In this document: positions 142-27,174 of the stretch, piece by piece
Numbering within the stretch: position 1 is the first letter of the stretch
How the letters are laid out: every line of letters starts with the position of its first letter
Source of the DNA: Bacteroidales bacterium
GTDB lineage: Bacteria > Bacteroidota > Bacteroidia > Bacteroidales > B18-G4
DNA length: 43,786 nucleotides
Direction of reading: 5' to 3'
Assembly (NCBI GenBank): GCA_030606625.1
Contig: JAUWGC010000002.1
Coordinates: forward strand, 1-43,786
Made by a program: the position numbers and the translations under genes
Notes under the pieces: model-generated
What the model saw: the letters and a program-made list of their open reading frames with translations, nothing else
Told to the model about the DNA's origin: nothing
Databases searched by the model: none

Positions 142-170
142 TGTTTGATTTTAAGCTGAAAAATGAACAC

Positions 171-5706: not shown

Positions 5707-6010
5707 AATTTCCTGTATTTAAGTGTGTTCTTTTAAAACTGCTTTATCAATTATAAATGAGTATGTAATTTATATGGATAAATCAATTTGCTATGCTTTT
5801 TCTTTTATATATAAAATTAATTTTACTACTAAATCGTATCTAATATATGTAACTATTGAATTTAAAACAAGAATTTTAAAGTAATCGGCAGTATTCAATC
5901 AGTTAACGGTGTGAATATATTTGACAAAAAACTATATTCAGCCATGGTGGAACCTAATTGTAATTTTTTAATTCCTTATCAGGATTAAAATGAATAACAG
6001 TACAGCCAAA

Positions 6011-6157
6011 TCAAGGCTGCTCAATATTGGCAAATTGAATATGCTTTCCTTCGGAAGCCATATGCCCAACAATATTGGCATCTGTTTTGGCTTGCTGCCC
6101 ATTAGCCATAATGATAATTGCAAAAATAGATATATAGATACATAGTAATCGTTTCAT
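6011..6157 (-). CDS. Possible small secreted peptide (48 aa), below the ORF-track threshold
   Basis: ATG at 6157 gives MKRLLCIYISIFAIIIMANGQQAKTDANIVGHMASEGKHIQFANIEQP then TGA. The N-terminus is hydrophobic and signal-like. It lies in a 740-nt AT-rich gap just downstream of the heptamer inverted repeat. I recognise no family. Confidence 0.2.
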   Translation of the reverse strand: MKRLLCIYISIFAIIIMANGQQAKTDANIVGHMASEGKHIQFANIEQP

Positions 6158-6184
6158 CGGATTACATTTTATCAATTCAAGATG

Positions 6185-6247
6185 TAGAAATTTGAAAATA
6201 GAAATTAGAAATTAAGTCACCATCCGAATTTCTAATTTCTAATTTCA
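6185..6247. repeat. Phased heptamer tract forming an inverted repeat: (TAGAAAT-like)x4, a 14-nt centre, then (AATTTCT-like)x3
   Basis: The units read tagaaat ttgaaaa tagaaat tagaaat taagtca ccatccg aatttct aatttct aatttca. The roughly 20-nt arms (6194-6213 and 6227-6246) are complementary with one mismatch. Confidence 0.75.
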
Positions 6248-6296
6248 TTTTATAATCAGTATATAAAATGAATACTAAATAATTTGAATGACGATA

Positions 6297-6338
6297 TCTC
6301 ATATAATTGATACCGGAAATTCTCCAATGTATATGAGA
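6297..6338 (-). terminator. Hairpin TCTCATATA-N24-TATATGAGA about 110 nt downstream of the purF-like stop
   Basis: It has a perfect 9-bp stem, but the loop is large and the U tract is weak, so the terminator assignment is tentative. Confidence 0.25.
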
Positions 6339-6446
6339 GTGATGAAACCAAGGTAAAACCCAGTAACTATATAAAGAAACTGTGCTTGTTGGATTATCTA
6401 AAACTCTGCCGGGGTATGTTTGTGAGTTTTAAATGGCTTTGGTGCT

Positions 6447-11486: not shown

Positions 11487-11549
11487 GTCGACAGTCGACA
11501 GTCGACAGTCGACCAGCATTCTGGTCACTGATCACTCGTCACTGGTCAC
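11487..11549. repeat. Heptamer tandem tract filling a convergent intergenic gap: (GTCGACA)x4, one linker unit, then (TGGTCAC-like)x4
   Basis: The units read gtcgaca gtcgaca gtcgaca gtcgacc agcattc tggtcac tgatcac tcgtcac tggtcac. Each GTCGAC core is palindromic, so the tract can fold into a hairpin. The last unit contains the stop codon (11546-11548) of the minus-strand CDS. Confidence 0.8.
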
Positions 11550-13612
11550 TTCCTAATTAATATTATCTTCCCCATTCCAACCAGTTCTCCTGCCTGAATT
11601 CTATAGTAGTAAATTCCTGCCGGTAATGCATCAGCGTCCCATTGTATTTGATGCCTGCCTTTTGGCTGAGATTGTTGAATAAGTTCTTCGGCTTGCTGGC
11701 CATTTGAGTTGAATATTTGGATAGTGACGGCTGATTGCCTTTCGAGTTGGTATTCGATGGTTGTTGCGGAGGAAAAGGGATTGGGATATACAAGCAGTTC
11801 AGGTTGTTTCTGTTCAATATCTTCAATATCGACATGATCGGCCACTGTGATGTAATCGACCTTGATCTCGGTCTGACTGTTCGTCCCATCCGAAACAGTT
11901 AATTTCACTGTATATTTTCCTGGTTGTGAATAGAAAAACACCGGGTTTCTGACTGTCGCATCAACCGTATCGTTGTTGTCAAAATCCCACTCCCACGAGG
12001 TGATCAAACCCAGCGACAGATCCGTAAACTGGATTTGAGACAAAGGCTGAACATAAGTAGAATCGGCAATAAAATCAGCATCAATTCCATTATCACCCAG
12101 AATGGTAAATGATTTTGTGGTAATGGCCACAAGAGTATCCGCTCCTTCAACCAGCATGTATTTCAGGAAGCAGTTATTCGTAGAAATGGTTTGGGGAATT
12201 ATCCATTGGTACCGTCCTGAATTTGGTGTGCCTGTGGTCAGTATTATCCATGGCCCGATACTACCCCGGAGTGAATAAGCAATCTTTACTTGTGCACCCG
12301 ATGATTGCGGAACAGCACTGACCCAGTCAGTGAACTGTACCGAACCTTGCCTGAATACTTCTTTCCCTTTTGGGAAAACGGTTTTAATGCTTGACTGTAA
12401 TAATGGCGTTGTTTCTTTAAAACATTTCAAATGGTTTTGGTCGTTGGGCCATGAGCCTTCTTTTTCCACCAGGGTCATGTCAGGAAACCCGTTACGGTCC
12501 ACATCGCCTCCTGCCCTGAAAGCGGCGCAATTGCCATTGTTCGACGTTATAGTATTAAACACCTGTATCCATATTATAAGATCATTGTCATCCAATAAAA
12601 CGCCACGCCATACCGTCAGCGTCGCATTTCCAAAGGCTGCGATATCCATAAAACCATCAGTATTGAAATCGCATAGCTGAACTTCCTGGTAATTTCCTGA
12701 GGATGGCAGGCTTCCGGAATTATCAACCCACAGGTTGTTGATCTCATCAAAAACCCAAACCATGATGCCACCATCCGGGTTAATATAAGCCAGGTCTTTA
12801 CCACCGTCATTATTTACATCCTTCAGGTCGGGCCCGTACATGGGAAAAGAATATTGAGGGAGGTTATAATCTGCATTTGTGAAGTTGCCTGTACCATCGC
12901 CGAAAAATGCTATTCCAGCGTCGTGGGTTACAACAAAGTCGACATTGCCATCTTTGTTGATATCGCCGAACACAAAGCGCATATTGGAATTCCCGGGAAG
13001 GATGCCAAAACTCTGTATCCAGGTTCCATCGCCCTGGTTGATATAAATATGAAGTCCGGAGCCGGATCCGAATGAGTTGGTGCCGATATCAAGATCTCCA
13101 TCATTGTCCACATCAGCAAAATCGGTTCCGAACAAGCCCCAGGTTTCACCGTTCGTGGCCAGGCCATCGTCCCAGGGTGTCCAGTTTACACCGCTGCCGT
13201 CGCCCAGAGCAACTTCAAGAAGCTGGTCGCCAAAGTCGGTTGACGAATAATTGTGATGCATTCCATATCCCACATCCCAATTACCATCATTATTTACATC
13301 GCCAATGGCTATTCCTCCATACCCAAAATTACCTGTCATTTGCACACTCCAGTTTCCAGCTCCGTCGCCAAACCAAACCATGATTCCATGCTCCTGTGAA
13401 TTGATATTCGGGCAGCCATGATCGCCGATAGAAAGAATATCTACAAACCCGTCCATGTCGATATCAGCAAATTCCAGCTCGGTCTTACCACTTTCCCATG
13501 AAGGATAGCTCATGCCGGTTGAACTTTCAATATATTGAAACGAACTTTCGTTTTGACTGTAAGATAACATGCAAAGAAGCAAAATGCCTGAGATTAAGTA
13601 TATTTTTTTCAT
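11546..13612 (-). CDS. Secreted FG-GAP/VCBS-repeat protein with a PKD domain and a T9SS type A CTD
   Basis: There are repeated calcium-binding-like loops (DIDMDGFVDI, DVNNDGNWDV, DVDNDGDLDI, DINKDGNVDF, DFNTDGFMDI). The PKD-like segment is ...WEWDFDNNDTVDATVRNPVFFYSQPGKYTVKLTVSDG. The CTD reads VYPNPFSSATTIEY...IFNSNGQ...GIYYYRI. The likely start is MKKIYLISGILLL at 13612; the ORF extends to 13642. Confidence 0.8.
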   Translation of the reverse strand: MKKIYLISGILLLCMLSYSQNESSFQYIESSTGMSYPSWESGKTELEFADIDMDGFVDILSIGDHGCPNINSQEHGIMVWFGDGAGNWSVQMTGNFGYGGIAIGDVNNDGNWDVGYGMHHNYSSTDFGDQLLEVALGDGSGVNWTPWDDGLATNGETWGLFGTDFADVDNDGDLDIGTNSFGSGSGLHIYINQGDGTWIQSFGILPGNSNMRFVFGDINKDGNVDFVVTHDAGIAFFGDGTGNFTNADYNLPQYSFPMYGPDLKDVNNDGGKDLAYINPDGGIMVWVFDEINNLWVDNSGSLPSSGNYQEVQLCDFNTDGFMDIAAFGNATLTVWRGVLLDDNDLIIWIQVFNTITSNNGNCAAFRAGGDVDRNGFPDMTLVEKEGSWPNDQNHLKCFKETTPLLQSSIKTVFPKGKEVFRQGSVQFTDWVSAVPQSSGAQVKIAYSLRGSIGPWIILTTGTPNSGRYQWIIPQTISTNNCFLKYMLVEGADTLVAITTKSFTILGDNGIDADFIADSTYVQPLSQIQFTDLSLGLITSWEWDFDNNDTVDATVRNPVFFYSQPGKYTVKLTVSDGTNSQTEIKVDYITVADHVDIEDIEQKQPELLVYPNPFSSATTIEYQLERQSAVTIQIFNSNGQQAEELIQQSQPKGRHQIQWDADALPAGIYYYRIQAGELVGMGKIILIRK

Positions 13613-13726
13613 CTGTTTAGAATTTCTTATTAAAATCTTCATGATAGTCTCTCCAGCTGGCGCTTGTTTGTAACGAGCGCCTATTTCCTGCGGGTTTCCA
13701 CTTCATACTATATTAAATAACACGAC

Positions 13727-16300
13727 TCAATAAACACACAATTTCTGTGTATATCGTGTATCAGAAGTAATTATGCTGACAACGTAAATACCCGGAGAGA
13801 ATTTTGAAACATCCACAATTTCCTTATCTGTTCGCATTTCGGAGTTGAACATAAGCTCTCCGTTTATATTTATTATTTGGAAAGTCGCAGAGGTTTGCTG
13901 TTCAGGGTATTCAATGAAAAGATTATCTTTCGCAGGGTTCGGGTATACCTTTAATCCTTCCACATCCAGAGAAGCTATACTTCCTGTATTTTCCACCTCA
14001 ATAATAACTAAGCAGGTATCTGAGAGCCCTTCACCATCAAAAAGCTGATAAGTAAAAAAATCATCTCCATAAAAATCAATATCAGGGGTATATGAAAAAG
14101 ACCCGTCGTAATGCAGATATACATCCCCATGAATTGCGCAATCTGTTATTCCCGCCACCATGGAGTTGCCGTCAATATCATAATCATTATGCATCACACC
14201 TACTTCTTCATCAATAAAAAGTGTAATATTTTGCTTTGTGGAGTATTCATCACAATATGCGATCGGTGGACTATTAAACACATAAAGGGACTCTTCGATA
14301 ACGGCAACACATGCTTTTTCCACTTCTTTAATCTCAGTTACAAAATTCCATGGTTCCCAGGTAAAACGGGTGGAAGGTGTAACACTGTGATGATCATGGA
14401 ATACTGATATTGAAATACCATCAGAGATCGTATCTTCCGTTTCAAATGTATCCCTGTTATCATTCATAACCTTTAAATGGCTGGGATCGACAAATTGGAT
14501 CAAGGACCATGGCAGACGGATATCGATTGAATCAATACCAATGACTACGGCGTCTGTGCTGGAAGGTGGCCAATCAAACCGCCGCACTTTCAAATCACCT
14601 ATGTATTGAATCTCAAAGTCCGGATCACTGTTTTTCCACCGGACGATATCCCAGGGTGCACCATTAGAAGGTATGGAATGATATAACTGGTCGGGGCCTG
14701 ATATTCCATGCCAGATGCCAAAAAGGTCATATGCCCGGGTTACATAAAGCTCTGCGGAATAACTGGTGATCCTCAATGCAAATTCAGCCCTGTTAACTAC
14801 TTGATCCCCCGTTGGTAAAATAGACTCTCCCAGATCTGCAGCATATGTATCTATGGATATCCATATTGTATCCATATCATTCATCTCTTCGCTGAACATC
14901 AATTGAAAATGGAAAAAGTCATAATCCCCGGCAGCATATATTTCCGTAACCGGGCAGGTATCCGGGAATGTATCCCAAAGTTGATATTCAAGAGCTTCTT
15001 TTCTGAAAGCAATCATTCCGAAATTTTGTTCTGCTCCGGTCACATTATGCCAAAGAACCCTGCTTTCAATATTATAATCAATGGGGTCGGTTATCCAGGT
15101 ACGTTTAAACCATTCATCTATCCAGGCAAATTGTATCCCGCCACCACAGCCAACATCCTGAATATTATGGAGCAAGCGGATATAATTCAACCCTTGTTGT
15201 TTTTCATCGAAGCCTCCATGATTCATCCCACTTTGTGCATAATGAGCAACACCCCAGCTTGAAGGCGTGCCGTACTCTGCGATGATCAGCGGAAAACGGT
15301 AGTAATGGTTTTTTAAATCCGTTATGTATCCAAGATAACTATTTGGTCCCAGATAGTCGAAATATGTTTGATATTCGGGGTCTAAACTAACGAAGTCCGG
15401 ATAATAGGGATAACTGTGATAGCTTGCAAAATATCCTGCAGGTGCATTTGTAAACTCCAGATTTGCCAAGTCAATGGAGGCTGTGTCTTCATCGGGAAAA
15501 AGCCCATAAGGATGTTTAATAGGATCAAGTGTAGGCCAGCTGGAAAAGCTTACAGGCCGCTCGGTTTGATATTGAGATCTTTCATAAATGATCAGCTTTT
15601 CAATCCTCTCAGTAATCCAGGTTTCAGCCGGGTTACCTGAAGGTAAGGAAAAAACTTGTCCGAAGTAAGAAGTATCATTTGAATGAAGTAAGTTTGTCTC
15701 TAATACTTCCTGAGGGGATAATTCCCTGCCTATGATATAAGCCATTACCCATTTCGAGACATCTGTATCGTATACTCCGAAAGCTTTACCAAATCTTGGC
15801 TCAATCACCTTGTTCCCATGCATACAATCTATGGTTTCTTCAATTAGAAGATCGAATGTATCAGTCAGAAAATAAAGGTCTTCATCATAATTTTCAAGTG
15901 CTTCTTCGAGCCATACCCCCTGGAAGATGTGAATCGGGTCTTTGGGATGGGCAAGGTTAAACGAATCCAGTACTTCATAAAACCTTGGATAATGCAATGT
16001 ATAAAGCCTGATCGTATTAAATCCTATTTCCCTGATCCTCTTGAGCCATCTGCTGTATTGTTCCCTTGTAGCAGCCAGTTGACCGGGGAAAGTACCTGGC
16101 ACAGCAACCCCAAGATTTATTCCTTTTACAAATACAGGAGTATAATCCACTCCATTCCAGATAGTCAGGTTGTTCTCATTTATGGAAAAAGGAACAGCAG
16201 TATTTGAACTACAAAATAAGTCTTCTGTTTGCGCATTTGATAATGGCAAAATGAAAAGAAGATTAATAAAACATACAATGATTCGTAAAGATATTCTCAT
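13727..16300 (-). CDS. Secreted putative glycoside hydrolase (TIM-barrel-like N-terminal region) with a cadherin/VCBS-like Ig domain and a T9SS type A CTD
   Basis: 857-aa ORF with a signal peptide. The segment FVKGINLGVAVPGTFPG...YSRWLKRIREIGFNTIRLYTLHYPRFYEVL resembles clan GH-A-like barrels. The segment NSPPIA..DEY...NDYDIDGNSM...DGSFSYTP...GDDFFTYQLFDG is Ig/cadherin-like. The CTD reads KVYPNPAKDNLFIEY...GIYVVSI. I cannot assign a specific GH family by eye. Confidence 0.55.
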   Translation of the reverse strand: MRISLRIIVCFINLLFILPLSNAQTEDLFCSSNTAVPFSINENNLTIWNGVDYTPVFVKGINLGVAVPGTFPGQLAATREQYSRWLKRIREIGFNTIRLYTLHYPRFYEVLDSFNLAHPKDPIHIFQGVWLEEALENYDEDLYFLTDTFDLLIEETIDCMHGNKVIEPRFGKAFGVYDTDVSKWVMAYIIGRELSPQEVLETNLLHSNDTSYFGQVFSLPSGNPAETWITERIEKLIIYERSQYQTERPVSFSSWPTLDPIKHPYGLFPDEDTASIDLANLEFTNAPAGYFASYHSYPYYPDFVSLDPEYQTYFDYLGPNSYLGYITDLKNHYYRFPLIIAEYGTPSSWGVAHYAQSGMNHGGFDEKQQGLNYIRLLHNIQDVGCGGGIQFAWIDEWFKRTWITDPIDYNIESRVLWHNVTGAEQNFGMIAFRKEALEYQLWDTFPDTCPVTEIYAAGDYDFFHFQLMFSEEMNDMDTIWISIDTYAADLGESILPTGDQVVNRAEFALRITSYSAELYVTRAYDLFGIWHGISGPDQLYHSIPSNGAPWDIVRWKNSDPDFEIQYIGDLKVRRFDWPPSSTDAVVIGIDSIDIRLPWSLIQFVDPSHLKVMNDNRDTFETEDTISDGISISVFHDHHSVTPSTRFTWEPWNFVTEIKEVEKACVAVIEESLYVFNSPPIAYCDEYSTKQNITLFIDEEVGVMHNDYDIDGNSMVAGITDCAIHGDVYLHYDGSFSYTPDIDFYGDDFFTYQLFDGEGLSDTCLVIIEVENTGSIASLDVEGLKVYPNPAKDNLFIEYPEQQTSATFQIININGELMFNSEMRTDKEIVDVSKFSPGIYVVSIITSDTRYTQKLCVY

Positions 16301-16571: not shown

Positions 16572-17723
16572 ATGAATACATTAATGGTGTTAGTTGCTGA
16601 AGCTGATCCATTGGATCGTTGGAAAATTGGAGCGGATCTTGAAAAACTGGGGTTGTCCTGCGAATTTATTCAGATTGAAGATGAATCCCTCGAAGTAATT
16701 CAAGATAAACATTTCGATATGATCCTTGTGGATACTGATGCCACCAAGGTGGATGTCAGTTATATACTCAATAAATTAAAAGATGGGACTAATCAGCCTC
16801 TCAAAAAAATACCTGTTTTTGCCTTGACGGCTGATAAAGACGAAGATCATTTAAACAACTTGAAGGAAAAAGGATTTAATGATTTTCTTTTCAAACCATT
16901 TGACATTGATGAGCTGAAGTCCAAAATAGCCGGCATCTTTCCTCAGATTACTCATTTATCGGGTGATACAAAGGATGAAGATCAAAAACCTGAAATGTCT
17001 GAAGGGACTGTTTATAGCCTGGATTATCTTGAAGAATATGCAAATGGTGATATGGATTTTGTTCATGAAATGGTTCAATTATTTATTGATGAAACACCTA
17101 AAGTTATCAAGGAGTTATTGAAATTCTACAACAAAGGTGACTGGGATAATGTAAGAATGGAAGCCCATAAATTTAGTCCTCAGTTGGCAATTATGGGACT
17201 ATATGGTGGTGTTTCCCTTCTTGAAGAGATCGAAAGAAATGCTAAAACCGGAAAAAACCTTCAAGAAATTCCTGAGTTTATCCATGGTGTGGAAAAAATT
17301 TGTCTGACTGCCATCCAAAAAATGAAATCGGATCTGGTTGATAAGAACAAAAAGATTATCAGGGTTCTGGTATGTGAAGATGACCACATGATGTTGAAAT
17401 TGATTGAGCATAAAATGGCAAGTGAAGGTTATGAAATCATTCTGGCTAAAGATGGTAAGAATGCATCCGAACTCTTAAAGAAAAATGATTACGATCTCAT
17501 TGTTACTGATTTATTGATGCCCTATATGACAGGCTTAGAGCTAATTACACTTGTTCGTTCAAAACTGTCAAAAAACATACCGATTATCGTACTATCAAGA
17601 ATTGGCTTGGAAAACACTGTTCTAAAGGCTTTTGAGTTGGGTGCAGATGATTATATTGTCAAGCCATTCAGTCCGAATGAATTATTAATAAGAGCAAAAA
17701 AATTACTCTCAAAGAAAAAGTAA
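16572..17723 (+). CDS. Phosphorelay protein with REC-Hpt-REC architecture and no output domain
   Basis: The N-terminal receiver shows VLVAEADP...MILVDTD...FALTA...FKPF. The central Hpt-like four-helix segment is DFVHEMVQLFIDETPKVIKELL...WDNVRMEAHKFSPQLAIMG. The C-terminal receiver shows VLVCEDD...LIVTDLLMPYMTG...IIVLS...GADDYIVKPF. The stop overlaps the next start (TAATG at 17721-17725). Confidence 0.75.
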   Translation: MNTLMVLVAEADPLDRWKIGADLEKLGLSCEFIQIEDESLEVIQDKHFDMILVDTDATKVDVSYILNKLKDGTNQPLKKIPVFALTADKDEDHLNNLKEKGFNDFLFKPFDIDELKSKIAGIFPQITHLSGDTKDEDQKPEMSEGTVYSLDYLEEYANGDMDFVHEMVQLFIDETPKVIKELLKFYNKGDWDNVRMEAHKFSPQLAIMGLYGGVSLLEEIERNAKTGKNLQEIPEFIHGVEKICLTAIQKMKSDLVDKNKKIIRVLVCEDDHMMLKLIEHKMASEGYEIILAKDGKNASELLKKNDYDLIVTDLLMPYMTGLELITLVRSKLSKNIPIIVLSRIGLENTVLKAFELGADDYIVKPFSPNELLIRAKKLLSKKK

Positions 17724-19033
17724 TGATACGGACAAATAACAGACGAATTTTTGCGACGGTATTTATCCTGGTGGTTTTTTTTATTACTCCTGATATAGCA
17801 TTATCCCAGGAGAACATTCCACTCGATTCTCTCTTTTTAAAAGCAAGAGACCTGGCTTTCAATAATGAATATAAAGCAGCCAGGGACATATGTAATAACA
17901 TTCTTTCCCAAAATGAACAATACTACGATGCACAAGTTCTTATCGGCAGAACACTCGCCTGGGAAGGAAATTTTGATACAGCACGGAGTGAGTTTAAGGA
18001 AGTGATCACAAAGAAACCAGGCTACCGGGATGCTGTAGATGCGTTGATCGATATGGAATCCTGGGCTGAAAAATTAGATTCAGCACTATATTATTGTGAT
18101 TATGGCTTATCCTATTATCCGAATGATGAACAATTATTGGTAAAAAAAGCAAAGATCCAGATGATGATGGGAGAATTAAATTCATCCCAGCGAACTATTC
18201 TGCAGGTGCTTGATCGCAACCCATCCAATGAACAAGCCAATGAATTGCTTGAAAACATAAAAAGTGTCAATATTTTTAATTATGTTTCAATAGACTATGA
18301 TTTTGAGTTTTATGAAACCCCATGGATCAGGAGATGGCATTTGTTATATTTTTCCTACTTCCGGCAAACATCAATAGGTTCGATTATTGGAAGAGTATAT
18401 CTGGGTGATCTCGTCAAGCAAGAGGAAACGATATTTTCAAAAGAAACCGGTACTGCATTTGAGATTGAGGCTTACCCGATATTTACAAAGAAAAATTATG
18501 CATATATAAACTACATGTATTCGCCTAATGATCTTTTTCCTCGTCACCGGGCCGGCCTGGAAGATTACCAATTGTTACCGTGGACCCTGGAAGTTTCCCT
18601 TGGTGCAAGATATATGTATTTTAAAAACAAAAACGGCTCCAGTGATGATGTATTCATTCTCACAGGTTCTATTGCAAAATATTATAAGAATTATTGGTTT
18701 TCATTCCGGCCTTATATCACGCCTAAATCCAATGGCGTCAGTCAATCTTATCTCCTCAGAATAAGACGATATTTTAATACGGCAGACAATTTTATTCTCC
18801 TCGAGCTTGGAATAGGGAATTCACCGGACGATCCTCTTAACTATCTAGACGATCCAAACAATCCTGATATGTATAAACTACAGAGCTATAATATAAGAAC
18901 TGGTGTTCAGTATCTTATTCTGCCCAGATTATTAACCCGGTTTGAACTGGGATATGAGTATCAGGAATCCATTATTAATGATAAATATCGCAATAATATT
19001 CTCACTAAGATCAGAATTGCGTATTACTTTTAA
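17723..19033 (+). CDS. Outer-membrane protein: N-terminal TPR repeats plus a C-terminal YaiO-type beta-barrel
   Basis: 436-aa ORF with a signal peptide. There are about 4 TPR-like repeats (aa 40-190). The remainder is rich in alternating aromatic and polar beta-strand sequence and ends in ...RIAYYF, a terminal aromatic typical of outer-membrane barrels. The TPR-plus-YaiO layout is recognised from memory of Bacteroidota annotations. Confidence 0.55.
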   Translation: MIRTNNRRIFATVFILVVFFITPDIALSQENIPLDSLFLKARDLAFNNEYKAARDICNNILSQNEQYYDAQVLIGRTLAWEGNFDTARSEFKEVITKKPGYRDAVDALIDMESWAEKLDSALYYCDYGLSYYPNDEQLLVKKAKIQMMMGELNSSQRTILQVLDRNPSNEQANELLENIKSVNIFNYVSIDYDFEFYETPWIRRWHLLYFSYFRQTSIGSIIGRVYLGDLVKQEETIFSKETGTAFEIEAYPIFTKKNYAYINYMYSPNDLFPRHRAGLEDYQLLPWTLEVSLGARYMYFKNKNGSSDDVFILTGSIAKYYKNYWFSFRPYITPKSNGVSQSYLLRIRRYFNTADNFILLELGIGNSPDDPLNYLDDPNNPDMYKLQSYNIRTGVQYLILPRLLTRFELGYEYQESIINDKYRNNILTKIRIAYYF

Positions 19034-19274
19034 TATCTAAAATCGGCGTTCCCCCGAAAAATCCCCGAATAAAACAGTAAAAGAATAAATTCGTCATAAT
19101 ATGAACCAGGCATAATCATAAATTGTGCATAACTAATTAATAAATTCCTCTACTCGTAAGTCTTCCTTAATATTATCATTTTGTATTTTAGGCCGTCCGT
19201 ACTTTTGTGTGTTTGGCATTTTGTATGCATACATTAGCAGGAATGATATTGAAGTTATTATTGATCATAAGATA

Positions 19275-19291
19275 ATCCGTTCATAACGGAT
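19275..19291 (+). promoter_or_regulatory. Hairpin ATCCGTT-cat-AACGGAT ending 6 nt before the start codon of the HEAT-repeat gene; possible translational or processing element
   Basis: It has a perfect 7-bp stem and a 3-nt loop, read directly from the sequence. A TAnnTTTG-type motif (TACTTTTG, 19200-19207) lies upstream in the same 264-nt gap. Confidence 0.3.
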
Positions 19292-19297
19292 GATTTG

Positions 19298-21007
19298 ATG
19301 AAAAATTACCTGATTAGACACAGTATTATTTCGCTTTGCTTAATCATTCCGATAGCAATACGCTTTTTCTTTCCTGCAGGAATGATCGCTCAAAACGACC
19401 AGGGAGCCAAAGAAGAAACTGAATACAAGGTTCAGGTGATGGCAGTATGGAATGAGGCGTATTCTCCACTCCTCATTCAAACTCAATATGAATTAGACAC
19501 CTTGGTCCGGGAGGATTATCATAAGGGCTGGTATAAATATTCAGTTGGGTCTTTTGAGGATTATTGTTCAGCAAGAAATTACAGGGAAAAATTGAGGCGA
19601 GATTACGGGGTGAAAGGAGCGTTTGTTGTATTTTTTTACAAAAACAAAAGAGTTACTACCATTGATTCTGCTGAATATTATGAGGAACAGGCAAAGAAAA
19701 TTGCCTTGCAAAAATTACTGGCATCGTCCGATGAGCAAGTTCGGGATTCACTTCAGTTTGACACCATTATATACCCGAAAGATACAGCCCAGGATGTGTC
19801 ACCTGTTGCAGGAAAGGTTGAAGATGTTGGGCCTGAAGAAGAATCCTCTATCAGAACCGGGAGTTTCAGGACAAGATTAATTAATTTTTTCCACCGCCAA
19901 TTCCCGGTATCCATTTCAATATGGCTGGAAAAGATCGTTAATATAACTTATACCAAGTTAATTGCACTGATCTTTGTTATCCTCATAATATATTTACTCC
20001 TGAATGTTATACTTGTTTCTATTTTTGTTATTATCAATAATATTCGGCGCTCCATCAGGGAAAACAGACAAAAGAAACTCAGGGAACAATATCAGGGTAA
20101 ACTAACGAATTTTTTATTAACTGATGAAAGAACTTTTAAGGAAGTAGTAAATCTGGCCAGGATACAGAAAAGGGAAAAACGTCAAATCCTGATTGGTGAG
20201 CTACTGAATCTTCAGTCCAATGTTTCCGGAGAGGCAAATAAAAAACTTAGTAACCTGTATTATGCACTTCAATTGGATAGAGATTCTTTAAAGAAGCTAA
20301 AACGACTCGACTGGATTATTAAAACAAAAGGACTAAAGGAAATATCCCAGATGGATGTAAAACGTGCAATTCCCCGAATAGATCGTTTTCTAAATGTGAA
20401 AAATGATGTGTTGCGCTCGGAAGCACAATTGGCTTTGGTACGGTTAAATGTAAATGATCCATTTTCATTTTTGGATCGTCTGACAAAATTTTTCACACAA
20501 TGGGAACAACTCCATATCCATACCATAGTAAAAAGGCATAAAATAATTGTCCCTGATTTCAGCCGCTGGTTTGATTCTAAGAATGATTCCGTTGTCATTT
20601 TTGCGGTAAAAATGGCAACAATTTATTATCAGACACATTGTGCCAAAGACTTGGTTGAATTATTATCGCATCCCAACACAGCCGTGCGGAATATTGCTAT
20701 CCAGTCGATCGGCCTGATGAGTTTGCAGGAATTAGATAAACAACTGATGCAGATTTACGCAGACGAAGATTACCAGAATAAATTGGCAATTATTAAGTCA
20801 TTACAGCAGATACCTGATAGCAAGCAGATCGAATTTCTAACGGATGTAATATCCGAAAAGGACTTTAATTTGCAACTGGAAGCCGCCCGGGCTTTATATA
20901 ATATGGGTAAAAGCGGAAGGGAGAGACTGAAAAAAATAGAGATGGAACTCAACGGGGACTTTAAAAAGATTATTAAGCATATCTCTGATAACAGGATTAA
21001 CAAATGA
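19298..21007 (+). CDS. Bitopic membrane protein: signal peptide, periplasmic SPOR-like domain, one TM helix, cytoplasmic HEAT-repeat domain
   Basis: The SPOR-like segment is YKVQVMAVWNEAYS...GWYKYSVGSFEDYCSARNYREKLRRDYGVKGAFVV. The TM helix is LIALIFVILIIYLLLNVILVSIFVII. The C-terminal 330 aa carry HEAT/PBS-lyase-like repeats (...LRSEAQLALVRL..., ...AVRNIAIQSIGLM..., ...LQLEAARALYNMG...). Confidence 0.6.
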   Translation: MKNYLIRHSIISLCLIIPIAIRFFFPAGMIAQNDQGAKEETEYKVQVMAVWNEAYSPLLIQTQYELDTLVREDYHKGWYKYSVGSFEDYCSARNYREKLRRDYGVKGAFVVFFYKNKRVTTIDSAEYYEEQAKKIALQKLLASSDEQVRDSLQFDTIIYPKDTAQDVSPVAGKVEDVGPEEESSIRTGSFRTRLINFFHRQFPVSISIWLEKIVNITYTKLIALIFVILIIYLLLNVILVSIFVIINNIRRSIRENRQKKLREQYQGKLTNFLLTDERTFKEVVNLARIQKREKRQILIGELLNLQSNVSGEANKKLSNLYYALQLDRDSLKKLKRLDWIIKTKGLKEISQMDVKRAIPRIDRFLNVKNDVLRSEAQLALVRLNVNDPFSFLDRLTKFFTQWEQLHIHTIVKRHKIIVPDFSRWFDSKNDSVVIFAVKMATIYYQTHCAKDLVELLSHPNTAVRNIAIQSIGLMSLQELDKQLMQIYADEDYQNKLAIIKSLQQIPDSKQIEFLTDVISEKDFNLQLEAARALYNMGKSGRERLKKIEMELNGDFKKIIKHISDNRINK

Positions 21008-22443
21008 CAGTATCTGAAACTATAACATTTTTCATTGAGAAATTCATTCTATACTATGCAATCTGCATATTGTCCTTTTATGTTATACTTGCAGGGATAT
21101 CGGTATTTGTCCTTAGAAAATATTTGCGGAGAAGAAAATTTGTGGATTACAACCTCATTCTATCTTCTCCTTTTGCTCCCTCCATTTCTATTATAGCACC
21201 GGCCTATAATGAATCAATTACTATTGAGGAGAATATCCGTGCACTTCTATCACTGTTTTATCATAATTTTGAGGTTATCGTGGTAAATGATGGGAGTACG
21301 GATAATTCCATGGAAAAATTAATTAAAACATATGAACTTATACCAGTTGATTTTGCTGTGAATTATAAGATCAAAACACAGGAAATCAAGTGTATCTATA
21401 AATCCCAAAACAAATCATTTAGTAACCTTATAGTTGTCGATAAAAAAAATGGGGGGAAGGCAGATGCATTGAATGCAGGAGTGAACATAGCAAAAAATGA
21501 TTATGTTGTCTCTGTTGATGCCGACTCTATTCTGGCTTCAGACGCATTGTTGAAGCTGGCAAAACCTATACTTGAGGAGAAAAAAAAGAAAGTTATTGCA
21601 GCAGGAGGAGTAGTCCGGATTGCCAATTCATGTCAAATTGAGGGTGGACAAATATTAAAGGTGAATATACCACGAAAGCTTTTGCCCCGCTTCCAGGTGA
21701 TCGAATATACCAGGTCGTTTCTGATGGGAAGGATGGCATGGAGCCAATTGAATGGATTGCTCATTATTTCAGGTGCCCTGGGAGTGTTTGATAAAAAAAT
21801 ACTTATTAATTGCGGCGGATACTTAATAACAACAGTTGGTGAGGATATGGAGCTGGTTGTGCGGATGCGAATGTATTTGGTGGAACAAAAGCAAAAATAC
21901 AAGGTCGTGTACATCCCTGACCCGCTGTGCTGGACAGAAGTACCTGCAAATCTGGTGCAATTAGGCAGACAAAGGAACAGGTGGATTCGCGGAACAATTG
22001 ATACCTTGAAACTGCACAGGAAACTATTCTTTAATCCGCGTTATGGCATCATGGGTATGGTGTCTTATCCTTATTGGTTCTTTTTCGAATGGTTGGCACC
22101 AATACTTGAGTTTCTTGGCATTCTTTATTTTATTATAATTGCCATACTTGGCATTCCCAACTGGTCATTCTTTTTTATCATGCTGGGATTTGTATACTTT
22201 TTCGCCGTTTCCTTTTCCACCTATGCTATCTTATATGAAGAACTAACTTTTCACCAATATGAGAAAAAGTCCGGTCTGTTCAAGTTGTTCATCACAGCAT
22301 GGATAGAACCATTCATATACCATCCCTTGATATTATGGTGGTCTCTCAAGGCAAATTTTGATTATTTTATACTTAAAAAAACAGGTTGGGGATATCTTAA
22401 GAAGAAAGGATTTGTTGAAGGCAATAAAAGAAAGCCCCGGTAA
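21004..22443 (+). CDS. Processive family-2 glycosyltransferase (PgaC/IcaA/NodC/BcsA-like membrane-embedded polysaccharide synthase)
   Basis: There is an N-terminal TM helix. Catalytic motifs present: APAYNE...VVNDGSTDNS, DADS, GEDMEL and the Q-x-x-R-W motif QRNRWIRG. Four or more C-terminal TM helices follow. The start overlaps the upstream stop (ATGA at 21004-21007). Confidence 0.8.
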   Translation: MTVSETITFFIEKFILYYAICILSFYVILAGISVFVLRKYLRRRKFVDYNLILSSPFAPSISIIAPAYNESITIEENIRALLSLFYHNFEVIVVNDGSTDNSMEKLIKTYELIPVDFAVNYKIKTQEIKCIYKSQNKSFSNLIVVDKKNGGKADALNAGVNIAKNDYVVSVDADSILASDALLKLAKPILEEKKKKVIAAGGVVRIANSCQIEGGQILKVNIPRKLLPRFQVIEYTRSFLMGRMAWSQLNGLLIISGALGVFDKKILINCGGYLITTVGEDMELVVRMRMYLVEQKQKYKVVYIPDPLCWTEVPANLVQLGRQRNRWIRGTIDTLKLHRKLFFNPRYGIMGMVSYPYWFFFEWLAPILEFLGILYFIIIAILGIPNWSFFFIMLGFVYFFAVSFSTYAILYEELTFHQYEKKSGLFKLFITAWIEPFIYHPLILWWSLKANFDYFILKKTGWGYLKKKGFVEGNKRKPR

Positions 22444-22460
22444 TCGCCAGGGGCATTTTT
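22434..22460 (+). terminator. Rho-independent terminator closing the REC-Hpt-REC/YaiO/HEAT/GT2 operon
   Basis: GCCCC-ggtaatcgcca-GGGGC is followed by ATTTTT. The stem overlaps the stop codon at 22441-22443. Confidence 0.6.
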
Positions 22461-22861: not shown

Positions 22862-24082
22862 ATGAAAACACGATTATTAATACTCGGAATACTGATATCC
22901 TTCCAGGCTTCTGCCACCTGGCTGCCTTTTGGGCCTGAAGGCATCGTTGCTAACAATGTTTGTTTTGTCATCGACAACATGAACCATTGGGTAATCTGTC
23001 ATGATGAGGGAATATGTATTTATGACCATGTTACCCAAACCTGGACCGACCATCCATCCGACCTGCCCGTACGGGATGCTTATTATCTGGACGGGGACAA
23101 GATCCTCGTGATCATGGGGAACGGCAGTTACTCCGACGGAATTTATGCGTTTAACCCGGCATCCAATCAGTATGAATTGATCAAATACCTTGAAAGCCCA
23201 CAATTCATACACTTCAATGATACTAATCAACAATATTATGTTGGCTACCATCTCGGATTTGTCACTTCGCCGGATGGTTTCATCTGGACAACCATCGAGA
23301 TATTCAACAACAAAAGTATTGTGGCCATGGATACTTATCAAAACCATTTTGTGGTTTCGGAAATGGATAACCAATATGGAATTTGGTATTCTGATGATTA
23401 CGGCAGCACATGGGTAAAGTCTCTGACAGGCTCACCCATGATCAGTTGTTTGGGATTCGATTTTGCTGGTAAACTATATGGAATATATCCTGATGAAAGC
23501 TGGTCATCAGGATTATGGTCTTCCACAGATTACGGACAAATCTGGGAAGTCGAATTCTGGTCGATAAATATGAGTTGTGTTGGTTTTGACGCTATGGCAA
23601 GTGTTTTTGTAGGATGGGGATATAATCCCACAGGAACGGAGGAAGGCATTGCACTTTATATTCCTGAAGATGATTCGCTTCGCTTTTTGAATGAAGGTTT
23701 GCCAAACCTGATCGTCAATAAGATAACACACGATCCCTGGATGAGCGCTATCGCCCTGTTTTGTTGTACTGAAAATGGTGTTTATGTAAGCTACGATTAT
23801 GTTGGTGTTATTGAAAATAAGTATCCTGGAGAAATATGCCAGCTCAATATTATGCCTAACCCGGTTACAAAAACTGCTTTGGTAAATTACTTGTTACCGG
23901 AGCACACTAACCATGCAACCCTGCTGATCTGCCAGCAGGATGGAAAAACAATCTGGGAAAACCAGGTGGATCATCCGGAAGGCAGTCTGAAACTCGATTG
24001 TTCGGATTTCCCTTCGGGAATATATTATGTTATCCTGAGGGGGCGGAATTTCAGTACCTGTAAGAAGATGCTTGTACGATAG
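22862..24082 (+). CDS. Secreted BNR/Asp-box propeller-like protein with a T9SS type A CTD
   Basis: It has a signal peptide (MKTRLLILGILISFQASA), Asp boxes YSDDYGSTW and SSTDYGQIW, and the CTD NIMPNPVTKTALVNY...GIYYVILRG...KKMLV. The gene ends in TAG (24080-24082). Confidence 0.75.
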   Translation: MKTRLLILGILISFQASATWLPFGPEGIVANNVCFVIDNMNHWVICHDEGICIYDHVTQTWTDHPSDLPVRDAYYLDGDKILVIMGNGSYSDGIYAFNPASNQYELIKYLESPQFIHFNDTNQQYYVGYHLGFVTSPDGFIWTTIEIFNNKSIVAMDTYQNHFVVSEMDNQYGIWYSDDYGSTWVKSLTGSPMISCLGFDFAGKLYGIYPDESWSSGLWSSTDYGQIWEVEFWSINMSCVGFDAMASVFVGWGYNPTGTEEGIALYIPEDDSLRFLNEGLPNLIVNKITHDPWMSAIALFCCTENGVYVSYDYVGVIENKYPGEICQLNIMPNPVTKTALVNYLLPEHTNHATLLICQQDGKTIWENQVDHPEGSLKLDCSDFPSGIYYVILRGRNFSTCKKMLVR

Positions 24083-24114: not shown

Positions 24115-26409
24115 ATGAAAAGATATCATCTATTTCTATTTTTTCTAATCTTCATTATATCCAATATTTCCGGACAGGTGAGGGTATACACTCCTGAATT
24201 AATTTTACCTGTGAATGGTGCTGAAGAACAAATGCCCAAAATGCTCTTAGATTGGAATGCCATCTCATCTACCGGAGGACTTCTTGTGTATGAAGTGGAA
24301 TGGGACATTGATAATGGTTTTATCTATCCTGAAAATATAATTACTGATCTAACGGCATTTGAGGTTTCAGAACTCTATTTTGATACCATTTACTTTTGGC
24401 GTGTAAGAGCCATCGAAAATAATGACACTTCCGATTGGTCTGAAATATGGACCTTCCATACAGTAAAAAATATTGAACTGGATGCTCCCTCTAATGGTTC
24501 AACCAGGGATCCTTACTTAAAATTTGCCTGGGATCCAATTGAAGGTGTCAATTTTTACGATATCGTTTATGATACAGCGAATATTTACTGGAATGAGCAA
24601 AAAATCGACCCCGGTGGTGCCACTCTCAGGGACTTGTTCTATATTAATGATACGCTCGGGTGGATCATAGGAGATAATGGAACCATCCTGAAAAAATCAG
24701 GTAATCAATGGATTAGGGCTCAGGAAGAACTCACAAACAAAAATCTATATTCTTTTCATTTCGTTGATGATACATTCGGTATTGCAGTAGGAAATGAGGG
24801 GACCATTCTTTATTATTTCAATGGGATTTGGATGAAAGAAACTCAACAGGTGACCGAAAATAACCTGCGTGGGATTTATTGCTTATCCTGCAATAATGCC
24901 TGGGCAGTGGGAAAAAATGGCACTATCCTTCATTACAATGGTTTAGAATGGGTGCATGATTCAATACCTTGGCCGATACATAGTAATGACATATACATGA
25001 TAAATGAGAATAATGGATTTATAGTTGGAGCTGGCCATATTCTTCATTGGAATGGCATTGAGTGGACCTTATTCCAGCAGATTGATTTTGAGCAATATAA
25101 ATTGTTTTTTCTGAATGATTCCGTTGGATGGACATGCGGGAAAAAAGGAACAGTTTACAAATATAATGGAACTAACTGGGTGCTGGAACATACGTGTACT
25201 GCTTTAAACAGTCATTTTTATGATATTATGTTCATAGACGAGGATCATGGTTCTGCAGTGGGGAATAACAGCCGTCTTTATTTTTACAAGCAAGGTGAAT
25301 GGATTCATATGGAAATGCCTGTAAAATACACCGACTTTTTTGCCTGTTGGCTTTTCACTGATGATTCTATCCATATTGTTGGTGAGGATGGAAAATTTAT
25401 TTATAACGATACCACAACTTTTTCAATTCCGGATACCATTGTGATTAGTGGGGAACATGATTATCAATATATTGATTTGTTTCATTTTGGTACTCGATTT
25501 TATTGGAAAATGAGGGGGCAGCATAATAGAGATACTACGGTTTGGTCTGATACATGGTACTTTAAAATTATAAATACATTGGATCTAAATTATCCTCCTA
25601 ATGGTGAACAATTGGAACATCTTTCAGTCGAACTTCTTCGCTGGGAAGGAATTTCTCACACTATTAATTACGAGGTACAGGTTGATGAAGATTCACTATT
25701 CATCTCACCTTTAAAATATTTTGAGGAATATAATAGCATAATGAATGTTCCATTAAATAAGTTAGGTCAAAAATATTACTGGCATGTCAGGGCCAACCAT
25801 TATACTGATACTTCAGATTGGTCGGAAGTATGGAATTTTTCTACCCCTAATACGGTTAAACTTCGTCTTCCTGAGAATGGTGCATCTGATGTTGCCTTAA
25901 GGCCAAATCTTTCATGGAAGCATATTGAAACTGTTGATTATTATGAAGTCTGGTATGATAGCGATCCTTCCATGCTGAATTGTGGGAAACAACTAATTGA
26001 CGGCTTAGTCAATGCATATATGATCCATCCGGATCTTGAAAATGAGCAAACCTATTATTGGCAAGTCCGTGCTATTTTCAATGCAGATACATCAGATTGG
26101 AGTGAAATTTGGTCATTTACAACTTTATCTCCTCAAGGGGTAAGCATAATGCCACAGGATGCCATATTGATTTATCCCAACCCGGCTAAAGATCATATAT
26201 TGATTAAACTGAAAACAACAACTCCCGTGAAAACAAAGATCCGGGTTATGGATATTACAGGAAAAGAATTTCTAAAACAGTATGCACTTTTTGATCAAAG
26301 ATCTGATGTTCAGTATATAGATATTAAAGAATTAGGCGAAGGTATTTATATCATCCATATTTCATCCGAATATTTTACTATATCCAGGAAAATTTCCATT
26401 ATCAGATAA
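24115..26409 (+). CDS. Secreted multi-domain protein: FN3-like modules plus a Ycf48-like beta-propeller, with a T9SS type A CTD
   Basis: Modules of the form P.NG...L.W......Y.V..D.D......Y.W.VRA...DTSDWSE(I/V)W.F.T recur. The central repeats GW(I/A)(I/V)G.NGTIL... are Ycf48/BNR-less propeller blades. The CTD reads LIYPNPAKDHILIK...GIYIIHI. Confidence 0.75.
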   Translation: MKRYHLFLFFLIFIISNISGQVRVYTPELILPVNGAEEQMPKMLLDWNAISSTGGLLVYEVEWDIDNGFIYPENIITDLTAFEVSELYFDTIYFWRVRAIENNDTSDWSEIWTFHTVKNIELDAPSNGSTRDPYLKFAWDPIEGVNFYDIVYDTANIYWNEQKIDPGGATLRDLFYINDTLGWIIGDNGTILKKSGNQWIRAQEELTNKNLYSFHFVDDTFGIAVGNEGTILYYFNGIWMKETQQVTENNLRGIYCLSCNNAWAVGKNGTILHYNGLEWVHDSIPWPIHSNDIYMINENNGFIVGAGHILHWNGIEWTLFQQIDFEQYKLFFLNDSVGWTCGKKGTVYKYNGTNWVLEHTCTALNSHFYDIMFIDEDHGSAVGNNSRLYFYKQGEWIHMEMPVKYTDFFACWLFTDDSIHIVGEDGKFIYNDTTTFSIPDTIVISGEHDYQYIDLFHFGTRFYWKMRGQHNRDTTVWSDTWYFKIINTLDLNYPPNGEQLEHLSVELLRWEGISHTINYEVQVDEDSLFISPLKYFEEYNSIMNVPLNKLGQKYYWHVRANHYTDTSDWSEVWNFSTPNTVKLRLPENGASDVALRPNLSWKHIETVDYYEVWYDSDPSMLNCGKQLIDGLVNAYMIHPDLENEQTYYWQVRAIFNADTSDWSEIWSFTTLSPQGVSIMPQDAILIYPNPAKDHILIKLKTTTPVKTKIRVMDITGKEFLKQYALFDQRSDVQYIDIKELGEGIYIIHISSEYFTISRKISIIR

Positions 26410-26451: not shown

Positions 26452-27168
26452 TTAATTGCTTGCACGGGGTTTTTCGTTATCTGTCAGAATCAATCCGACT
26501 TTTGGAATACACTCGATCTTCACGCTGGGATCATCATTGAGGTATCTTCTTAATTTAGAAATAAAAACATCCAGGCTTCTTCCAATAAAATAATCATCAT
26601 CTCCCCAGACCGACATTAAAAGATCTTCTCTTCTGACAATATTGTTTTTTGATATGCAAAGAAACCTTAATATATTACTTTCTTTGGATGTTAATCTTCT
26701 GGAATTCCCTTTTGAACTTAATAATTGGTTTTTGTAATTAAAGCTGTAATGTCCTATTTTAAATGTTGAATCGGCATTGCCTGAATTAAATCCTTTTGTT
26801 CTTTTCAATATTGCTTTAATACGGTAGAGAAGCTCTTCCTCATCAAAAGGTTTTGTTATATAATCATCAACTCCAATTTTGAAACCTTTGATTTTATCTT
26901 CTTTTAAAGATTTTGCAGTCAGGAATATAACCGGAATTTTTTCATTTAGTTTTTTGATGCGGGCAGCCAGGGTCACGCCATCCATACTTGGAAGCATGAT
27001 GTCAAGTATACAAAAGTCAAAGTGGTTATTCTTAAATGCGTTATAACCTCCTTCGCCGTCCCTGAAAAGCTTAACATCAAAGCCGTTAAACTGGAGAAAC
27101 TCCAGCAGGAGAAAACCCAGATTGATATCATCTTCAACCAGCAGGATATTGTATCTGTTAAGTTTCAC
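26452..27168 (-). CDS. OmpR/PhoB-family response regulator (receiver plus winged-helix DNA-binding domain)
   Basis: Receiver motifs: ILLVEDD...CILDIMLPSMDG...IFLTA...DDYITKPF. The C-terminal winged-helix segment reads ...LTSKESNILRFL......RSLDVFISKLRRYL. The apparent start is GTG at 27168. Confidence 0.85.
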   Translation of the reverse strand: MKLNRYNILLVEDDINLGFLLLEFLQFNGFDVKLFRDGEGGYNAFKNNHFDFCILDIMLPSMDGVTLAARIKKLNEKIPVIFLTAKSLKEDKIKGFKIGVDDYITKPFDEEELLYRIKAILKRTKGFNSGNADSTFKIGHYSFNYKNQLLSSKGNSRRLTSKESNILRFLCISKNNIVRREDLLMSVWGDDDYFIGRSLDVFISKLRRYLNDDPSVKIECIPKVGLILTDNEKPRASN

Positions 27169-27174
27169 AATTTG

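Follow-up and report, generated by a model that had tools for sequence, protein, structure and literature searches.

Bacteroidota are major colonisers of biofilms and particles in guts, sediments and oceans, and their synthesis of matrix polymers must be controlled in some way. To our knowledge, the well-studied synthase-dependent exopolysaccharide (EPS) systems (cellulose, alginate, poly-N-acetylglucosamine (PNAG), Pel and Nfr) are all gated by cyclic di-GMP (c-di-GMP). Bacteroidetes genomes have few GGDEF genes or none (PMC7288161). What, then, could switch on an EPS synthase in a phylum largely devoid of c-di-GMP? The question is raised by a locus of four genes, g1 to g4, found at positions 16572-22460 of a 43,786-nucleotide stretch of DNA, hereafter called the window, from a Bacteroidales bacterium (assembly GCA_030606625.1, contig JAUWGC010000002.1, positions 1-43,786 of the forward strand). 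The locus encodes a phosphorelay protein with two receiver (REC) domains and a histidine phosphotransfer (Hpt) domain, an outer-membrane protein made of TPR repeats and a YaiO barrel, a membrane protein with a HEAT solenoid and a processive family 2 glycosyltransferase (GT2). From the observed gene content, motifs, folds and conserved gene order, we infer secretion, the kind of polymer and a contact of the REC domain with the HEAT protein or the GT2. It appears rather likely that the locus belongs to a so far undescribed type of synthase-dependent EPS secretion system, gated by a phosphorelay and present in Bacteroidota and Ignavibacteria. A distinct EPS system under His-Asp phosphorelay had already been put forward in an initial annotation, made from the DNA letters alone, and this interpretation is supported by comparative genomics; the refuting conditions set for it that could be examined, on the barrel, the GT2 and the synteny, all turned out in its favour. 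It would provide a concrete and testable answer to the question of how matrix synthesis is controlled in these bacteria.

The four co-directional open reading frames proposed in the initial annotation are all present (Table 1). They had also been described as joined by start/stop overlaps. This is the case for g1 and g2, which overlap by TAATG (17721-17725), in line with the claimed translational coupling of the phosphorelay gene to the porin gene. It is also the case for g3 and g4, which overlap by ATGA (21004-21007). Both overlaps were read in the sequence. It is not the case for g2 and g3, which are separated by a gap of 262 bp.

The enzyme of the locus is the product of g4. Its GT-A domain carries the four motifs of processive synthases and is flanked by hydrophobic helices at residues 9-41 and about 359-450, in agreement with the signature initially described. 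It matches the profiles Glycos_transf_2, Glyco_tranf_2_3 and Chitin_synth_2, this latter above its cut-off. Its best NCBIfam match is PgaC/IcaA (129.4 bits), with 28% identity over 331 residues and the four motifs aligned by BLASTP. Other long matches are an XrtG-associated glycosyltransferase, the region of BcsA that comprises QxxRW and transmembrane (TM) helices, and Chitin_synth_2. Non-processive GT2s align with g4 over the first 50 or so residues of the glycosyltransferase fold only. Thus, all the long matches of g4 are polymerising membrane synthases, which argues against its grouping with non-processive enzymes.

The second gene would provide the way out of the cell. Its product had been annotated as TPR repeats followed by an outer-membrane barrel with an aromatic end. 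Profile searches bear this out: TPR_19 is matched at 4.6e-12 and the YaiO family far above threshold, both by PF19413 (4.5e-48, 164 bits for a cut-off of 23.9) and by TIGR04390 (7.6e-35, 120.9 bits for a cut-off of 32), and the protein ends in ...AYYF. g2 is thus a member of the YaiO family (PF19413/TIGR04390). The relation to YaiO of Escherichia coli is seen at the profile level only, the pairwise BLASTP comparison of the two proteins being not significant. The AlphaFold2 (AF2) model of g2 (pLDDT 89.2) comprises a signal helix, nine TPR helices and 14 strands (residues 186-435). The best matches of this model in the PDB, according to Foldseek, are BcsC (9b8a, E = 1.6e-10), PelBC (9h80) and BcsC again (6tzk), followed by general porins. 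According to the model, g2 would share its architecture with BcsC and PelBC, a resemblance by which homology is not proven.

The product of g3 had been described as a bitopic protein with a periplasmic SPOR-like domain and a cytoplasmic HEAT solenoid. The HEAT and TM parts of this description stand, with a HEAT_2 match at 1.6e-12 and an AF2 model (pLDDT 79.5 overall, above 90 in the solenoid of about 20 helices) that includes an N-terminal signal or TM helix, a beta-alpha-beta-beta-alpha-beta fold at residues 42-120 and, after a disordered linker, one long TM helix. The solenoid is placed on the cytoplasmic side by the basic stretch that follows this helix. The SPOR assignment is less direct: the PF05036 profile remains sub-threshold in g3 itself (16.9 bits for a cut-off of 21, E = 0.008), while the model gives residues 42-120 the order of strands and helices expected of SPOR and relatives of g3 show significant matches, the best at 1e-12. 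Among 56 long members of the HEAT family, the periplasmic domain is SPOR in 15 and LysM in nine (best E = 1.9e-25); no peptidoglycan-binding domain was matched in the other 32. SPOR and LysM domains bind glycans of the GlcNAc/MurNAc type. This suggests one of two roles for the periplasmic end of g3, to tie the synthase to peptidoglycan or to handle a polymer based on N-acetylhexosamine (HexNAc). The residues conserved in g3 are concentrated at positions 296-430. A fold search of the PDB with the HEAT model yielded generic alphaRep, armadillo and importin matches only, and no EPS component. An exhaustive profile search gave a HEAT family of 1,378 clusters at 50% identity (E <= 1e-30), the best 150 being mostly full-length; some of these approximately 1,400 clusters may be generic HEAT-repeat proteins.

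The first gene combines in one chain the three domains of a phosphorelay in the order D1-H2-D2. Pfam recognises two Response_reg domains (8e-39) and one Hpt domain, at 25.7 bits for a cut-off of 24.6. The second REC domain (REC2) is similar to OmpR/PhoB-type receivers in comparison with the PDB and is devoid of an output domain. In 33 orthologs of REC2, D270, T312-D313 (D313 being the phospho-acceptor) and K364 are invariant and Y361 is conserved at 97%. In the same way, H199 of the Hpt domain is invariant in 24 sequences. Both profiles and residues agree with the claim that g1 is a phosphorelay protein. The first REC domain (REC1) is divergent, with E10-A11 in the place of the ED pair and without the MP motif, while its Asp, Thr and Lys are retained; judging from these residues, REC1 of the window may be poor at phosphate transfer. 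The fusion of REC-Hpt with REC was found in three independent assemblies of the lineage of the window, and the remaining loci all have separate genes for REC-Hpt, or for Hpt and REC. Such a lineage-specific fusion, of the Rosetta-stone type, indicates a functional coupling of REC-Hpt and REC.

The association of these genes extends well beyond the window. Synteny was counted with one genome per GTDB species, which gives 38 loci, to which loci from metagenomes were added, in a table based on phmmer searches. Furthermore, a word-indexed search with g3 returned 32 relatives, and the four contexts of g3 relatives that were inspected have the same order: REC(-Hpt), REC, TPR-YaiO, HEAT, GT2. The GT2 gene lies directly after the HEAT gene in each locus that is long enough, at a distance of -8 to +10 nt in 41 of the 42 loci, and g4 orthologs are found across all loci at E = 1e-168 to 1e-214. 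Of the 31 species whose sequence reaches far enough upstream, 28 have a co-directional TPR-YaiO gene there. A single-domain REC orthologous to REC2 of g1 (E = 1e-29 to 1e-47) is located upstream in 26 of 30 species, preceded in 17 of these 26 by Hpt, REC-Hpt or a REC-Hpt protein of about 650 residues. Where REC is missing, housekeeping genes occupy its position, and the genes that flank the module vary between loci. In view of the conserved synteny, the idea of two unrelated gene pairs was rejected.

More distant relatives widen the host range and add further parts. The named members of the HEAT family come from Bacteroidota, Hanamia (Chitinophagaceae), Cytophagaceae and Ignavibacteria. A Hanamia-like contig carries a PAS-HisKA-HATPase-REC-Hpt hybrid kinase, REC, HEAT and a fusion of GT2 with a sulfatase-type domain, with TPR-YaiO nearby. 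On a Cytophagaceae contig, a divergent PAS kinase precedes REC, TPR-YaiO, a 634-residue carbohydrate esterase family 4 (CE4) deacetylase, HEAT, GT2 and GNAT genes. An Ignavibacteria contig has a hybrid kinase, two REC genes, a 257-residue YaiO without TPR, HEAT and GT2, and a 4.1-Mb contig has a divergent PAS kinase followed by REC-Hpt, REC, TPR-YaiO, HEAT and GT2. In relatives, the gene of a PAS hybrid kinase thus either opens the operon or is transcribed divergently from it. YaiO proteins 27-28% identical to g2 are also found in the order (REC), YaiO, HEAT-like, GT2. No locus was confirmed on the metagenome contigs scanned with remote members of the HEAT family. The YaiO-HEAT-GT2 triad, whose conservation in Bacteroidota had been left as a question, is therefore kept in the 38 species-level genomes as well as in Chitinophagaceae, Cytophagaceae and Ignavibacteria, the phosphorelay genes included.

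None of the usual c-di-GMP parts accompanies this module. Neither g1 to g4 nor 18 other scanned proteins of the window contain a PilZ, GGDEF, EAL, PgaD, BcsB or MshEN domain, in line with the initial statement that equivalents of PgaD, BcsB, PilZ and GGDEF are missing. The same statement about PgaB holds for the four proteins, which are devoid of Polysacc_deac_1; some relatives do carry a CE4 deacetylase. Other polymer-modifying parts seen in relatives are a GNAT and a sulfatase-type fusion. The locus has an inner-membrane processive GT2 and a TPR-plus-barrel porin, as do synthase-dependent systems; it lacks their c-di-GMP receptor, and a REC-Hpt-REC protein occupies that place.

These observations suggest the following course of events. 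A PAS sensor kinase, which in this genome would be encoded away from the operon, could phosphorylate REC1. Given the conservation of the residues, the phosphate would then pass from REC1 to H199 of Hpt and on to D313 of REC2. A terminal REC without output domain is expected to act by protein contact. Phosphorylated REC (REC~P) may thus contact the membrane-proximal face of the HEAT solenoid (residues 296-430), or the GT2, and switch polymerisation on; it would stand in for the c-di-GMP receptors of Pga, Bcs, Alg, Pel and Nfr. The GT2 would build the chain from a nucleotide sugar and pass it across the membrane by a channel of its own. Its obligate and translationally coupled partner, g3, could pack its TM helix on the synthase and complete or stabilise the channel, like PgaD or the anchor of BcsB; the HEAT protein may thus be the co-polymerase or activator that had been proposed initially. 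The SPOR/LysM-type domain would bind peptidoglycan or guide the nascent chain and the HEAT solenoid would serve as a docking platform. Finally, the architecture of g2 suggests that its TPR scaffold and 14-strand barrel convey the chain through the periplasm and past the outer membrane. As to the polymer, a HexNAc-based one that resembles PNAG or chitin is probable, on the circumstantial evidence of the likeness of g4 to PgaC/IcaA and Chitin_synth_2, of the CE4 deacetylase in one variant and of LysM/SPOR on the partner. A bolder version of this scheme, which we put forward tentatively and which is somewhat doubtful, would make the module a separate EPS class of the Fibrobacteres-Chlorobi-Bacteroidetes (FCB) group, in which REC~P docks on the HEAT co-subunit as the allosteric on-switch of the GT2 in place of c-di-GMP, YaiO-type 14-strand barrels form a new family of polysaccharide porins and the periplasmic SPOR/LysM domain of the co-subunit hands a HexNAc polymer over the peptidoglycan layer.

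Several observations weigh against this scheme. The fold matches of g2 reach a TM-score of about 0.35 only and its 14-strand barrel is narrower than the EPS porins of 16 to 18 strands. In the lineage of the window, g2 and g3 are not coupled, owing to the gap between them. The acidic pocket of REC1 is short of one residue, replaced by Ala. The operon of the window includes no sensor kinase, and the sole histidine kinase of the window (27175-28437) is paired with an OmpR-type response regulator. The domain scan found no polymer-modifying or polymer-cleaving enzyme in the operon either. As regards the target of REC, no REC-HEAT, REC-GT2, HEAT-GT2 or PilZ fusion was seen among the 56 long members of the HEAT family. 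REC is not adjacent in four of 30 species and YaiO in three of 31. Lastly, every host found is an uncultured metagenome-assembled genome (MAG) or a metagenome contig, the 38 species-level loci being all from uncultured Bacteroidales/Bacteroidota MAGs.

In an alternative reading, the polysaccharide is secreted and the phosphorelay does not gate the enzyme, REC feeding another output such as transcription through a partner or motility and the HEAT protein being only a structural co-polymerase or a peptidoglycan anchor. The absence of a fusion of REC with HEAT or GT2 among the long HEAT family members and the four genomes out of 30 in which the module has no adjacent REC fit this possibility. So does an OmpR-type regulator with a kinase that could control transcription, encoded close to the module in the window (26452-28437), in L003 and in L004, to which an OmpR-sized REC open reading frame in L044 may be added. 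A periplasmic SPOR/LysM domain would also suit anchoring. However, REC is devoid of an output domain while its phosphorylation residues are invariant, and it adjoins YaiO upstream, often overlapping it, in distant lineages whose flanking genes are wholly different. Moreover, it is in post-translational partners, EpsW among them, that a stand-alone receiver is typically so closely linked to structural genes. Uncoupling of the phosphorelay from the synthase is therefore considered unlikely. That the locus is a divergent Pga system, with g4 as PgaC, g2 as PgaA and poly-beta-1,6-GlcNAc as its product, and thus an ordinary representative of a known family, seems a little less probable still. PgaC/IcaA is the top NCBIfam match of g4, the PgaA model has a weak match in the TPR region of g2 and the Cytophagaceae deacetylase has both the size and the position of PgaB. 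Nevertheless, the equivalog cut-offs are missed by far, for PgaC (TIGR03937, 129.4 for 422.3 bits) as for PgaA (TIGR03939, 29.3 for 366.65 bits, in the TPR region only). Membership in Pga was rejected on these scores and on the absence of PgaB and PgaD from the window. Furthermore, BLASTP finds no similarity between PgaA and g2, whose barrel is of the YaiO family; Pga systems have nothing that corresponds to the HEAT partner or to the phosphorelay; and the sequence reveals neither the linkage nor the sugar.

It is very improbable, lastly, that the GT2 builds a periplasmic glucan, a glycolipid or a cell-wall glycan and that YaiO is an unrelated porin, co-regulated by chance. The weak matches of g4 to Glyco_transf_21 (ceramide glucosyltransferase, 21.6 bits) and to MdoH (14.9 bits) would point in this direction, as would a barrel of only 14 strands and the lack of a hydrolase or lyase gene in the window; yet these two matches are marginal or sub-threshold, whereas the long ones, to PgaC, BcsA and chitin synthase, include QxxRW and the TM helices. 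Both the remote versions of the module and 28 of 31 genomes keep a TPR-barrel protein beside the synthase, the E. coli yaiO gene is also linked to a GT2 gene, yaiP, and some relatives have in addition a CE4 deacetylase in the periplasm or a sulfatase-type domain for polymer modification.

The preferred reading, a phosphorelay-gated synthase-dependent system, can be set against the known systems one by one. Like Pga, the module has a GT2 with DGS, DxD, (T/G)ED and QxxRW motifs, a coupled gene for a membrane partner (small in Pga), a TPR-barrel exporter and, in some relatives, a CE4 deacetylase in the position of PgaB. It differs from Pga by its barrel, which is of the YaiO family and modelled with 14 strands instead of being a PgaA barrel, and by its partner, a protein of 360-770 residues with TM and HEAT, with or without SPOR/LysM. 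The gene of this partner lies upstream of the synthase gene, whereas pgaD lies downstream of pgaC, and an Hpt-REC phosphorelay replaces the c-di-GMP receptor. With Bcs, the module shares a processive GT2 with a TM channel, a single-TM partner whose periplasmic glycan-binding domain is analogous to BcsB, and BcsC (TPR and barrel) as the best structural match of g2. Unlike Bcs, its synthase has no PilZ, its barrel has 14 strands instead of 16 and the large domain of its partner is cytoplasmic (HEAT), BcsB being mainly periplasmic. Membership in Bcs was rejected, the CelA score being 42.5 for 699.1 bits and PilZ and BcsB matches being missing. The Nfr system of E. coli (NfrA/NfrB/YbcH) resembles the module by its minimal set of one GT2, one TPR-barrel protein and one accessory protein, but NfrB is gated by c-di-GMP. 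Membership in Nfr was likewise rejected, BLASTP giving no significant similarity between g4 and NfrB or between g2 and NfrA.

The closest parallel for the barrel is the yai locus of E. coli K-12. The initial annotation had noted that yaiO lies near the GT2 gene yaiP, and the arrangement yaiS-yaiP-yaiX-yaiO was verified. As in the module, a YaiO barrel is linked to a membrane GT2, YaiP being 28% identical to g4 over 291 residues, and polymer-modifying genes (deacetylase, acyltransferase) are present. This linkage indicates that YaiO barrels are tied to GT2 genes in Proteobacteria too. However, the E. coli YaiO is devoid of TPR, the locus has neither HEAT partner nor phosphorelay and is interrupted by IS2 in K-12, and YaiP has no QxxRW at the position of QRNRW of g4 in the BLASTP alignment. 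For the control mode, the nearest case is that of Myxococcus xanthus, where EpsW~P, a single-domain REC, activates the EPS phosphoglycosyl transferase by post-translational control (PMC12802240). This EpsW-EpsZ pair differs from the module, as it belongs to a Wzx/Wzy-dependent system, targets a phosphoglycosyl transferase and receives a chemosensory input; the module is synthase-dependent and its proposed target is the HEAT co-subunit or the GT2.

The unusual parts of the module are thus the YaiO porin, the HEAT/SPOR co-subunit and the phosphorelay that replaces c-di-GMP. A systematic survey of synthase-dependent operons mentions neither YaiO nor a HEAT co-subunit nor a phosphorelay-gated synthase (PMC7112194). 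In the same way, no description was found in the literature that links YaiO to a glycosyltransferase or a polysaccharide, nor of such a co-subunit or such a synthase. If the proposal is true, a terminal receiver hard-wired to a synthase, its co-subunit and its porin would be the mode of control. A possible function would be given to the YaiO family, including the orphan yaiO-yaiP locus of E. coli, and to a large family of "HEAT repeat domain-containing proteins". With only three structural genes, the module is also attractive for reconstitution.

Table 1. Coordinates of the features of the locus and of type IX secretion system (T9SS) cargo genes in the window
Feature	Positions	Residues	Strand	Description
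g1	16572-17723	383 aa	+	REC-Hpt-REC phosphorelay protein
g1 REC1	16572-16946	1-125	+	Response_reg
g1 Hpt	17067-17273	166-234	+	Hpt profile
g1 REC2	17358-17720	263-383	+	Response_reg
g2	17723-19033	436 aa	+	Putative TPR + YaiO outer-membrane export component
g2 TPR region	17822-18256	34-178	+	About 4.5 repeats, after signal peptide
g2 YaiO barrel	18278-19030	186-436	+	14 strands modelled, terminal Phe
g2-g3 gap	19034-19294		+	262 bp intergenic; possible internal promoter
g3	19295-21007	570 aa	+	Putative bitopic SPOR-like/TM/HEAT synthase partner
g3 SPOR-like domain	19418-19654	42-120	+	Periplasmic; preceded by signal sequence
g3 TM helix	19931-20029	about 213-245	+	After disordered linker
g3 HEAT solenoid	20129-20989	279-565	+	Cytoplasmic
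g4	21004-22443	479 aa	+	PgaC-like processive GT2
g4 GT-A domain	21178-21993	59-330	+	DGS96, DAD172, GED279, QRNRW323
Terminator-like hairpin	22434-22460		+	Hairpin 22434-22454, overlaps g4 stop, then U5
T9SS cargo gene	13727-16300	857 aa	-	Divergent from operon; Big_9/Cadherin_5, Por_Secre_tail; possible accessory, weak link
T9SS cargo genes	338-2566, 3265-5706, 11546-13642, 13727-16300, 22862-24082, 24115-26409, 35822-37876			Por_Secre_tail

As for the expression of the locus, the gap between g2 and g3 is also present in two independent assemblies of relatives that are about 96% identical. Its maintenance indicates that g1-g2 and g3-g4 are probably transcribed as separate units. The start codon of g3 is TTG, the next being the ATG at 19298. 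Within the gap, a weak -7-like box of the Bacteroidetes type, TACTTTTG (19200-19207), lies 16 nt past the TTTG at 19180-19183, a spacer below consensus; judging from the sequence, TACTTTTG is possibly the -7 box of an internal promoter for g3-g4. The Bacteroidetes promoter pattern TTTG-N17-23-TAnnTTTG has no match within the operon and matches to promoters of the sigma-70 type are not enriched (24 observed for 26.5 expected). The Rfam scan found no RNA family or riboswitch in the window, including the gap. At the other end, the terminator initially assigned to 22434-22460 agrees with the folding of a hairpin of -15.1 kcal/mol (z = -2.85) followed by U5; a simple scan reported it on the opposite strand only.

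The module shows lineage-specific variations. In the Hanamia-like locus (L048, 9092-12535), the GT2 carries a C-terminal domain of the sulfatase/alkaline-phosphatase type (PF00884); by analogy with BcsG, which acts on phosphoethanolamine cellulose, this suggests a modification of the polymer by a phospho-substituent in the periplasm. A gene of the CotH kinase family is located between YaiO and HEAT in L005 and L006 (6656-7996). L024 has a YaiO-HEAT gap of equal size (5282-6593). In L002 (2755-5862), a CotH gene with Fn3_assoc, CHB_HEX_C_1 and LTD lies just upstream of the module. The CotH genes near the module may be lineage-specific accessories. A sub-clade with a TPR-YaiO of 780 residues (L020, L022, L023, L031 and L033) has a YaiO-HEAT gap of about 2.1 kb, which in L020 holds a gene for 647 residues on the opposite strand (3792-5735), without Pfam match. 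The module of this sub-clade is split into two units, as by the 262-bp gap of the window.

Among the neighbours of the operon, the divergent T9SS cargo gene encodes a protein of 857 residues that is 48% identical, over its full length, to a protein of 858 residues encoded just downstream of a remote version of the module in L050 (11842-14418). It stands beside the module only in L050 and in close relatives of the window, and not in the other 45 or so loci. Nothing was found for its N-terminal region of 670 residues in sequence searches of the PDB or in a permissive Pfam scan; the protein may be a TIM-barrel hydrolase. It may serve the polymer as an accessory, either an enzyme or an adhesin, unless its position is a coincidence. 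On the other side, 4 kb downstream of the operon, genes for the OmpR-type response regulator and its HisKA/HATPase kinase (26452-28437) lie on the reverse strand. A similar pair is found beside the module in L003 and L004 (1908-3715), and L044 has a REC open reading frame of OmpR size (1738-2442). Such pairs may control the transcription of the module or may include the missing kinase.

The seven Por_Secre_tail proteins encoded in the 44 kb are unusually dense and carry mostly BNR/Ycf48-like, FG-GAP, PKD or unassigned domains. One of them (35822-37876, reverse strand) is a peptidyl-arginine deiminase domain of the Porphyromonas type (PAD_porph, 6e-29) fused to a C-terminal T9SS sorting domain, an arrangement reminiscent of the PPAD secreted by Porphyromonas gingivalis and present here in the genome of an environmental member of the Bacteroidota. 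Between 28910 and 35352, on the reverse strand, an anaerobic redox cluster encodes an FlpD/MvhD-type delta subunit fused to FAD and 4Fe-4S domains as well as subunits of a 2-oxoacid:ferredoxin oxidoreductase, which indicates that the host is a strict anaerobe.

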